From Escherichia coli (lineage in GTDB: Bacteria; Pseudomonadota; Gammaproteobacteria; Enterobacterales; Enterobacteriaceae), in NCBI RefSeq assembly GCF_003334335.1, contig NZ_QOWQ01000146.1: a stretch of DNA of 847 nt, one strand, 5' to 3'. A program made the translations under genes and the position numbers. The notes under the pieces were generated by a model, which made no database searches, was not told the origin of the DNA, and worked only from the letters and a program-made list of their open reading frames with translations. Below are positions 1 to 847 of the stretch, in pieces. The stretch's first letter is position 1, and every line of letters begins with the position of its first letter.

Positions 1-17
1 CAATGGGCAAGGTGGGC

Positions 18-46
18 TTGCATTTGCTTAATAGAAAGGCGTTAAT
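18..46 (+). promoter_or_regulatory. Candidate sigma70 promoter for agaR (weak match)
   Basis: TTGCAT at 18-23 (3/6 to TTGACA), a 17-bp spacer, then GTTAAT at 41-46 (4/6 to TATAAT). This would put the transcription start near 53-56, inside the CGAAA repeat block, which is the geometry expected for autorepression. The hexamers are weak and other registers are possible. Confidence 0.25.
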
Positions 47-49
47 AGG

Positions 50-80
50 CAAAACGAAATGAAACGAAAGTTTTACGAAA
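50..80. promoter_or_regulatory. Putative AgaR operator (autoregulatory): phased CGAAA direct repeats in the agaR leader
   Basis: Directly visible: ACGAAA at 54-59, 64-69 and 75-80, plus TGAAA at 60-64, giving 10-11 bp centre-to-centre spacing (one helical turn). Positions 50-73 (CAAAACGAAATGAAACGAAAGTTT) fit every position of the reverse complement of the AgaR operator consensus as I recall it from the literature (WRMMTTTCRTTTYRTTTYNYTTKK). That consensus is from memory and should be verified. DeoR-family repressors typically bind direct repeats as oligomers. Confidence 0.55.
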
Positions 81-83
81 GGA
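79..83 (+). promoter_or_regulatory. Shine-Dalgarno / ribosome-binding site for agaR
   Basis: AAGGA at 79-83, followed by a 6-nt spacer (84-89, CTTACT) before the ATG at 90. The spacing and purine-rich core are typical of an enterobacterial ribosome-binding site. Confidence 0.6.
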
Positions 84-89
84 CTTACT

Positions 90-847
90 ATGAGTAATAC
101 CGACGCTTCAGGTGAGAAGCGAGTGACTGGCACCAGCGAGCGACGAGAACAGATCATTCAGCGTCTGCGACAGCAAGGGAGTGTGCAGGTTAACGATCTG
201 TCGGCATTGTATGGCGTATCTACTGTGACGATCCGCAACGATCTGGCGTTTCTGGAAAAGCAGGGGATCGCTGTGCGTGCCTATGGTGGCGCGTTGATCT
301 GCGATAGCACGACGCCGTCAGTCGAGCCATCAGTGGAAGATAAAAGCGCACTGAACACCGCGATGAAACGCAGCGTTGCGAAAGCTGCCGTTGAGTTGAT
401 TCAGCCAGGTCATCGGGTTATCCTCGATTCCGGGACCACCACTTTTGAGATTGCTCGTCTGATGCGCAAGCACACTGACGTAATTGCGATGACCAACGGT
501 ATGAACGTGGCTAATGCGTTGCTGGAAGCGGAAGGCGTTGAGCTGCTGATGACCGGCGGGCATTTGCGCCGTCAGTCGCAATCTTTTTACGGCGATCAGG
601 CTGAGCAATCGCTGCAAAATTACCACTTCGATATGCTGTTTCTTGGTGTAGATGCGATCGATCTGGAGCGCGGCGTCAGCACACATAATGAAGATGAAGC
701 TCGTTTAAACCGTCGGATGTGCGAAGTTGCGGAACGGATCATCGTGGTCACCGATTCCAGTAAGTTCAATCGTTCCAGTTTACATAAGATCATTGATACT
801 CAACGTATCGACATGATCATTGTTGATGAAGGCATTCCTGCGGATAG
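90..847 (+). CDS. agaR: DeoR-family transcriptional repressor AgaR (aga operon repressor); 3'-partial, with no stop codon inside the window
   Basis: ATG at 90-92 opens a reading frame with no stop through 847 (252 complete codons plus 2 bases). Translation begins [67 protein letters not shown]... and ends ...[13 protein letters not shown]. The N-terminal ~55 residues (about nt 141-300) have the DeoR-type helix-turn-helix pattern; the rest (about nt 340-847) looks like a DeoR C-terminal sugar-phosphate sensor domain. Recognition as AgaR is from memory, not a database search. As I recall, full-length AgaR is about 269 aa, so roughly 17 C-terminal residues lie beyond the window. A Shine-Dalgarno sequence sits at the correct spacing upstream. 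Confidence 0.9.

Follow-up and report, generated by a model that had tools for sequence, protein, structure and literature searches.

The agaR repressor gene and its antisense shadow reading frame in an 847-nt stretch of Escherichia coli DNA

The stretch of Escherichia coli DNA analysed here (847 nt, referred to below as the window) carries a single long reading frame on the + strand, which is open for 252 codons from the ATG at position 90 to the edge of the window, and within which the remaining two + frames are open for no more than 35–37 codons (Table 1). With its default threshold of 60 aa, the ORF lister reported only one ORF, which is 118 aa long, runs on the − strand and lies wholly inside the + frame; at a threshold of 20 aa, seven further ORFs of 22–57 aa were obtained. 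The + frame does not appear in the ORF track, since it continues past the window edge, as had been pointed out in the earlier note, where the unlisted frame was taken for the real gene. A scan relying on a stop-to-stop ORF track systematically misses genes cut by the window edge. By megablast, K-12 MG1655 and many further strains were identical to the window across all 847 nt (100% identity), and matches were found in 5,321 of the 5,426 complete E. coli genomes, the annotation beneath the window being “agaR: aga operon transcriptional regulator AgaR” among the matches listed. Approximately 105 of the 5,426 complete genomes gave no match to the window, while a few matched at up to five places or carried plasmid copies (three places on plasmids). 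Extension in the 3′ direction, which had been advised in order to find the stop codon, placed the end of the + ORF at window-equivalent position 899 in the full record. This agrees with the RefSeq agaR CDS of the K-12 record (L001), which spans 3090–3899 (window 90–899) and encodes the 269-aa protein WP_000072187.1. The window covers codons 1–252 of 269 (94%) and is without the last 17 codons and the stop.

Table 1. Coordinates of the features assigned in and next to the window
Feature	Position in the window	Strand	Basis
Putative AgaR operator in the agaR leader	51..82	−	CGAAA repeats (CTTTCG on the minus strand), match to a published site
Upstream in-frame stop TGA	60..62	+	Translation of the upstream frame
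Shine-Dalgarno-like AAAGGA	78..83, 6 nt before ATG 90	+	Sequence; best anti-SD duplex −5.3 kcal/mol
agaR CDS, codons 1–252	90..847, full end at window-equivalent 899	+	Identity, RefSeq annotation, NCBIfam, synonymous excess
DeoR-type helix-turn-helix, AgaR residues 18–74	141..311	+	Pfam HTH_DeoR PF08220, i-E 3.1e-21, full model 1–57
118-aa antisense shadow ORF	330..686	−	Reverse complement of agaR codons 81–199
DeoR C-terminal sensor (effector-binding) domain, AgaR residues 89–247	354..830	+	Pfam DeoRC PF00455, i-E 3.7e-55, model 2–160 of 160

The + frame had previously been described as a DeoR-family sequence, and the profile check not only bore this out (HTH_DeoR 3e-21, DeoRC 4e-55) but made it possible to name the protein more precisely as AgaR. 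Both hallmarks of the DeoR family, the N-terminal HTH_DeoR and the C-terminal DeoRC domain, were found in the + translation. This two-domain plan is shared by AgaR with its E. coli paralogues SrlR, GlpR, DeoR, UlaR, FucR, YgbI, and YciT, but the window protein stays below the curated cut-offs of the paralogue models (SrlR, 214.6 bits with a cut-off of 350; GlpR, 194 with 300; DeoR, 96 with 244; UlaR and FucR likewise). The NCBIfam equivalog PRK09802/NF007316, on the other hand, scored 544.7 bits (cut-off 351) and NF040755, “transcriptional repressor AgaR”, 445 bits (cut-off 260), both with a query short of the 17 C-terminal residues. The + translation scored above the curated AgaR cut-offs and above every paralogue model, SrlR being the runner-up. 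The sole solved relative detected by sequence search was the C-terminal domain of E. coli DeoR (PDB 7l6l, E 1.8e-12). Compared with K-12 AgaR (WP_000072187.1; NF040755/NF007316), the start, the domains, the divergent kbaZ–agaV layout, and the operator motif were all identical in the window, and the sole difference is made by the window edge, which cuts the gene off 17 codons before its stop.

The start codon could be fixed by translating the frame upstream of ATG 90, where an in-frame TGA (60–62) is followed by nine codons that include no ATG, GTG, or TTG. Because of this upstream stop and the absence of an intervening start codon, ATG 90 is the sole possible start of agaR. The ribosome-binding site proposed for this ATG was recovered as the AAAGGA at 78–83. 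Moreover, a functional AgaR-mCherry fusion cloned from the equivalent of ATG 90 repressed a reporter with a synthetic promoter (PMC8667592, Table S1).

Selection on the + frame was followed in K-12 and 10 other E. coli alleles, which were picked down the identity ranking to 96.8% over 1,112 nt. Among these 11 alleles, 49 sites of the CDS were variable, 47 of them at third, two at first, and none at second codon positions, and the substitutions comprised 51 synonymous changes versus one non-synonymous change. The protein was identical to K-12 AgaR in nine of the 10 other alleles, including the most divergent one, which differs at 31 nt in the CDS. Such a distribution of changes argues for strong purifying selection on the agaR + frame. 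The frame might alternatively represent a DeoR-family paralogue, a pseudogene, or a gene using a different start codon rather than functional AgaR. As the window is without the 3′-end of the gene, intactness is not judgeable from the window alone; however, the full 269-aa ORF was intact in all 11 alleles, K-12 included, the scores of SrlR, GlpR, and DeoR (215, 194, and 96 bits) stand against 445 and 545 bits for AgaR and PRK09802, and there is no alternative in-frame start, while the protein made from ATG 90 represses through an AgaR site (PMC8667592). Thus, we regard these readings as extremely improbable. Considering the sequence comparisons, we identified the gene in the window as agaR, which encodes the repressor of the E. 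coli N-acetylgalactosamine genes, the biology of which is already known. The earlier note could therefore be made more specific on two points, as the gene can be named as agaR and the antisense ORF can be predicted from codon usage, of which it is a by-product.

In the K-12 record, agaR is separated by 248 bp from the divergently transcribed kbaZ–agaV–(agaW′–agaA′) genes and is convergent with the yhaV–prlF toxin–antitoxin pair. The location expected of AgaR, adjoining and diverging from aga catabolic and PTS genes, was found here, and like neighbours were present on metagenome scaffolds. The K-12 aga cluster also contains two truncated pseudogenes (L001 130–1054), one being a fragment of a PTS IIC component and the other a fragment of N-acetylglucosamine-6-phosphate deacetylase; therefore, AgaR regulates a partly deleted pathway in K-12. 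Just past the agaR stop, in the spacer between agaR and its convergent neighbour yhaV, an inverted repeat was read by eye (ATGCCCGC ... GCGGGCAT with a 21-nt loop; L001 3906–3942, window-equivalent 906–942, outside the window). The terminator scan did not flag this repeat because of its large loop and the lack of a T run.

In the leader of agaR (window 51–82, L001 3051–3082; AAAACGAAATGAAACGAAAGTTTTACGAAAGG), CGAAA units begin at 55, 65, and 76; the three are spaced at 10–11 bp, and the last of them overlaps the Shine-Dalgarno sequence. In the 6.8-kb locus, CTTTCGTTT-like 9-mers occurred eight times versus 1.84 expected, five of them in the kbaZ–agaR intergenic region. Two such 9-mers were located at locus positions 70–88, just past the end of the agaA remnant, on what we take to be the agaS promoter side of the aga cluster. 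An experimentally used AgaR binding sequence, CTTTCGTTTCATTTTCGTTT (PMC8667592, Table S3), which is labelled P_kbaZ and not P_agaR in that work, had one match in the 6.8-kb locus, on the minus strand of window 51–70, with three mismatches that amount to one shifted base (0.01 matches expected). Judging from these motifs, cognate CTTTCGTTT-type operator repeats appear to be present in the promoters regulated by AgaR, its own included. Window 9–89 was invariant among the 11 E. coli alleles versus 17.5% of variable third codon positions, for which P is ~2e-7 at the silent-site rate. AgaR was reported to repress agaZ (kbaZ) and agaS as well as agaR itself by autoregulation (Ray and Larson 2004, as cited in PMC4694137), and the invariant leader with its operator match fits the autoregulation and the agaZ/agaS repression described there.

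The consensus scan detected no strong sigma-70 promoter candidate inside window 1–89. Two + strand candidates were found ~150–200 nt upstream of the agaR ATG, at a frequency no higher than in shuffled sequences. Midway in the kbaZ–agaR divergent region, a CRP-like site, TCTGATCTGATTCACA, is present (L001 2942–2957, window-equivalent −58 to −43, outside the window); it has one mismatch to TGTGA-N6-TCACA, and it is not distinctive alone, as one or more such matches arose in 43 of 200 shuffles.

The features of the window can be joined in one explanation, in which it holds the first 252 codons of agaR, encoding the DeoR-family repressor of the aga genes, together with a functionless antisense by-product. 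We consider this explanation nearly certain, and no evidence contradicting it was found in this analysis. AgaR is the DeoR-family repressor of the N-acetylgalactosamine/galactosamine (aga) gene cluster of E. coli, with its N-terminal helix-turn-helix predicted to bind CTTTCGTTT-type arrays in the kbaZ–agaR divergent region, on the agaS side, and in the agaR leader at 51–82. Through binding at these three places, AgaR would therefore repress both the catabolic operons and agaR, and at the leader site the bound protein might block access to the promoter, to the transcript start, or to the ribosome-binding site. The DeoRC domain would serve as a sugar-phosphate sensor, and the binding of the effector, of which the chemical identity is likewise presumed, would lift repression; the effector was described as still unclear in a paper from 2015 (PMC4694137), which cites Leyn et al. 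2012. Repression and autoregulation by AgaR are taken from the literature, while the identity of the gene, its domains, its start, the operator match, and the lack of selection on the antisense frame come from this analysis.

The 118-aa ORF on the minus strand, which had been described as lying entirely inside the + strand gene, proved to be the codon-for-codon complement of agaR codons 81–199. It is in exact codon register with agaR, every antisense codon being the reverse complement of one agaR codon: its ATG is the complement of the CAT of His-199, its stop is the complement of the TCA of Ser-81, and the minus-strand stop ahead of the ORF complements the TTA of Leu-206. In this register, antisense stops are possible only at sense TTA, CTA, or TCA codons, which are rare in E. 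coli and of which there are none in agaR between codons 81 and 206. These three codons make up five of the 269 codons of agaR (18.6 per 1000), and the average of the locus, taken over six annotated genes, is 21.3 per 1000. Thus, the antisense frame is open because agaR uses few TTA, CTA, and TCA codons. Antisense ORFs with 118 aa or more were obtained in 14.9% of agaR codon permutations and in 10.0% of synonymous resamplings with local codon usage, and same-register shadows of 122, 109, and 104 aa lie opposite the neighbouring kbaZ, agaV, and garD genes, respectively (L001 1065–2841 and 4902–6473). As 10–15% of the randomised genes match its length and the neighbours carry similar shadows, the length of the antisense ORF is unremarkable, and, unlike what would be expected of an overlapping gene, it does not go beyond chance given the sense gene (P 0.15 and 0.10). 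The codon register, the stop rule, and the chance length are common to this ORF and to shadow ORFs in general, that is, long frames opposite real genes.

The allele comparison revealed no purifying selection on the antisense frame either. All 22 substitutions inside 330–686 among the 11 alleles were silent for AgaR and changed an amino acid in the antisense product, and strain KKo009 (L007) has an internal antisense stop, the antisense ORF being intact in 10 of the 11 alleles. The translation signals and conserved homologues that would mark an overlapping gene were also missing. The earlier note had seen neither a ribosome-binding site nor protein features for this ORF, and the calculations supported it: the best anti-SD duplex before the antisense ATG had only −2.2 kcal/mol and ended 11 nt upstream, no Shine-Dalgarno core (GGAG or AGGA) was present in the 20 nt upstream of the ATG (AAACGAGCTTCATCTTCATT), and the 118-aa product matched no Pfam model even at E ≤ 10 and no NCBIfam model.

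The 118-aa ORF may be compared with genes proposed to be embedded in antisense orientation in E. coli (PMC9927249, PMC7103648, and bioRxiv 10.1101/2020.11.18.388249), and could on that model be a genuine young overlapping gene like those of O157:H7. It has an ATG start, it is intact in 10 of the 11 alleles, and its exact sequence is present in a 57-member cluster of public collections. The O157:H7 genes pop, antisense to ompA (PMC7103648), and ano (PMC5960689) are likewise fully embedded in an annotated gene, but the claims for them rest on ribosome profiling, promoter and terminator evidence, and phenotypes. The ORF opposite agaR differs from them in having no Shine-Dalgarno sequence, in the non-synonymous nature of 22 of its 22 changes, all of them synonymous in agaR, and in the premature stop found in one strain. 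A length that arises by chance in 10–15% of equivalent genes, the similar shadows of the neighbours, and the lack of Pfam or NCBIfam matches also speak against a young gene, as does the finding that each database call examined lies on a damaged agaR. The main text of a survey of E. coli antisense overlapping genes does not mention agaR; the literature search was dominated by “agar plate” matches. Consequently, we give the young-gene reading almost no chance. Nor do we give any more credence to a narrower version of it, by which the ORF would be a very young gene restricted to E. coli that is translated conditionally without purifying selection and has been lost in KKo009.

In E. coli, antisense transcription is a widespread phenomenon. 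A non-coding RNA made from the agaR minus strand could modulate the expression of agaR, the ORF being incidental to it. This would be compatible with the ORF being a shadow, but it drew no support from this analysis: the three promoter-like sites that the consensus scan detected in the region all lie on the + strand and none on the minus strand, and within the span only third positions of agaR varied, at the ordinary silent rate, with no sign of extra constraint. A regulatory antisense RNA is therefore judged very unlikely. On the sequence evidence, we concluded that the 118-aa ORF is most probably a functionless by-product of agaR codon usage and not a gene.

What sets this shadow apart from ordinary shadow ORFs is only its roughly 60 entries in public protein collections, where it has been called as a protein ~60 times. 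The warning that annotation from the ORF track alone would yield a wrong-strand hypothetical protein thus describes what has already occurred in public data. The exact 118-aa sequence belongs to a 57-member cluster of a collection of 15 billion proteins, which consists mostly of gene calls from ENA metagenomes and has one NCBI entry, named “hypothetical protein HmCmsJML291_02548 [Escherichia coli]”. By comparison, 2,467 members make up the AgaR cluster, and at least 1,000 contigs carry the exact AgaR sequence. A sensitive search with the antisense product returned only 11 proteins among 5.8 billion clusters. Where examined, these few matches turned out to be gene-calling artefacts on damaged agaR, in accordance with the expectation that the product would have no conserved homologues: in all eight antisense-encoding loci examined, either a scaffold gap or indel errors had disrupted agaR.

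On five ENA scaffolds (L002–L006), the antisense ORF is in the gene list and agaR is not, and a gap of 100 N cuts agaR at codons 250–268. Three NCBI matches with approximately 50% identity (P0034–P0036; loci L017–L019) were considered as conserved homologues and rejected, since the underlying DNA proved to be indel-ridden E. coli agaR. These loci come from sibling assemblies (GCA_002230435.1, GCA_002230655.1, and GCA_002230475.1), and their DNA is 96–97% identical to K-12 agaR; each has 14 one-base gaps per 810 nt of agaR (~1.7% indels), by which the sense frame is broken into pieces of at most 96 codons and both frames are scrambled. In the loci examined, the antisense “homologues” are gene-calling artefacts where agaR is damaged, and the 847-nt window reproduces this situation. 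Gene callers fall back on the antisense shadow once a window edge, a scaffold gap, or indel errors have truncated the real gene. For the biology of agaR itself nothing new emerged, and the mildly useful by-product of the analysis is a shadow that is repeatedly mis-called wherever agaR is truncated or frameshifted.

Two minor observations were made on the damaged loci. The three sibling assemblies contain real genes in fragments, and among their few, short gene calls are chimeric antisense “proteins”, which are now in protein databases. On the five ENA scaffolds, which are independent of one another, the 100-N gap falls at a shared place (window-equivalent ~840–993), reaching from the 3′-end of agaR across the intergenic hairpin to the yhaV side; none of the five has a yhaV call, and two also have no prlF call. 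The site of this gap may be a strain-variable junction, defined by the presence or absence of yhaV–prlF, at which assemblies break.
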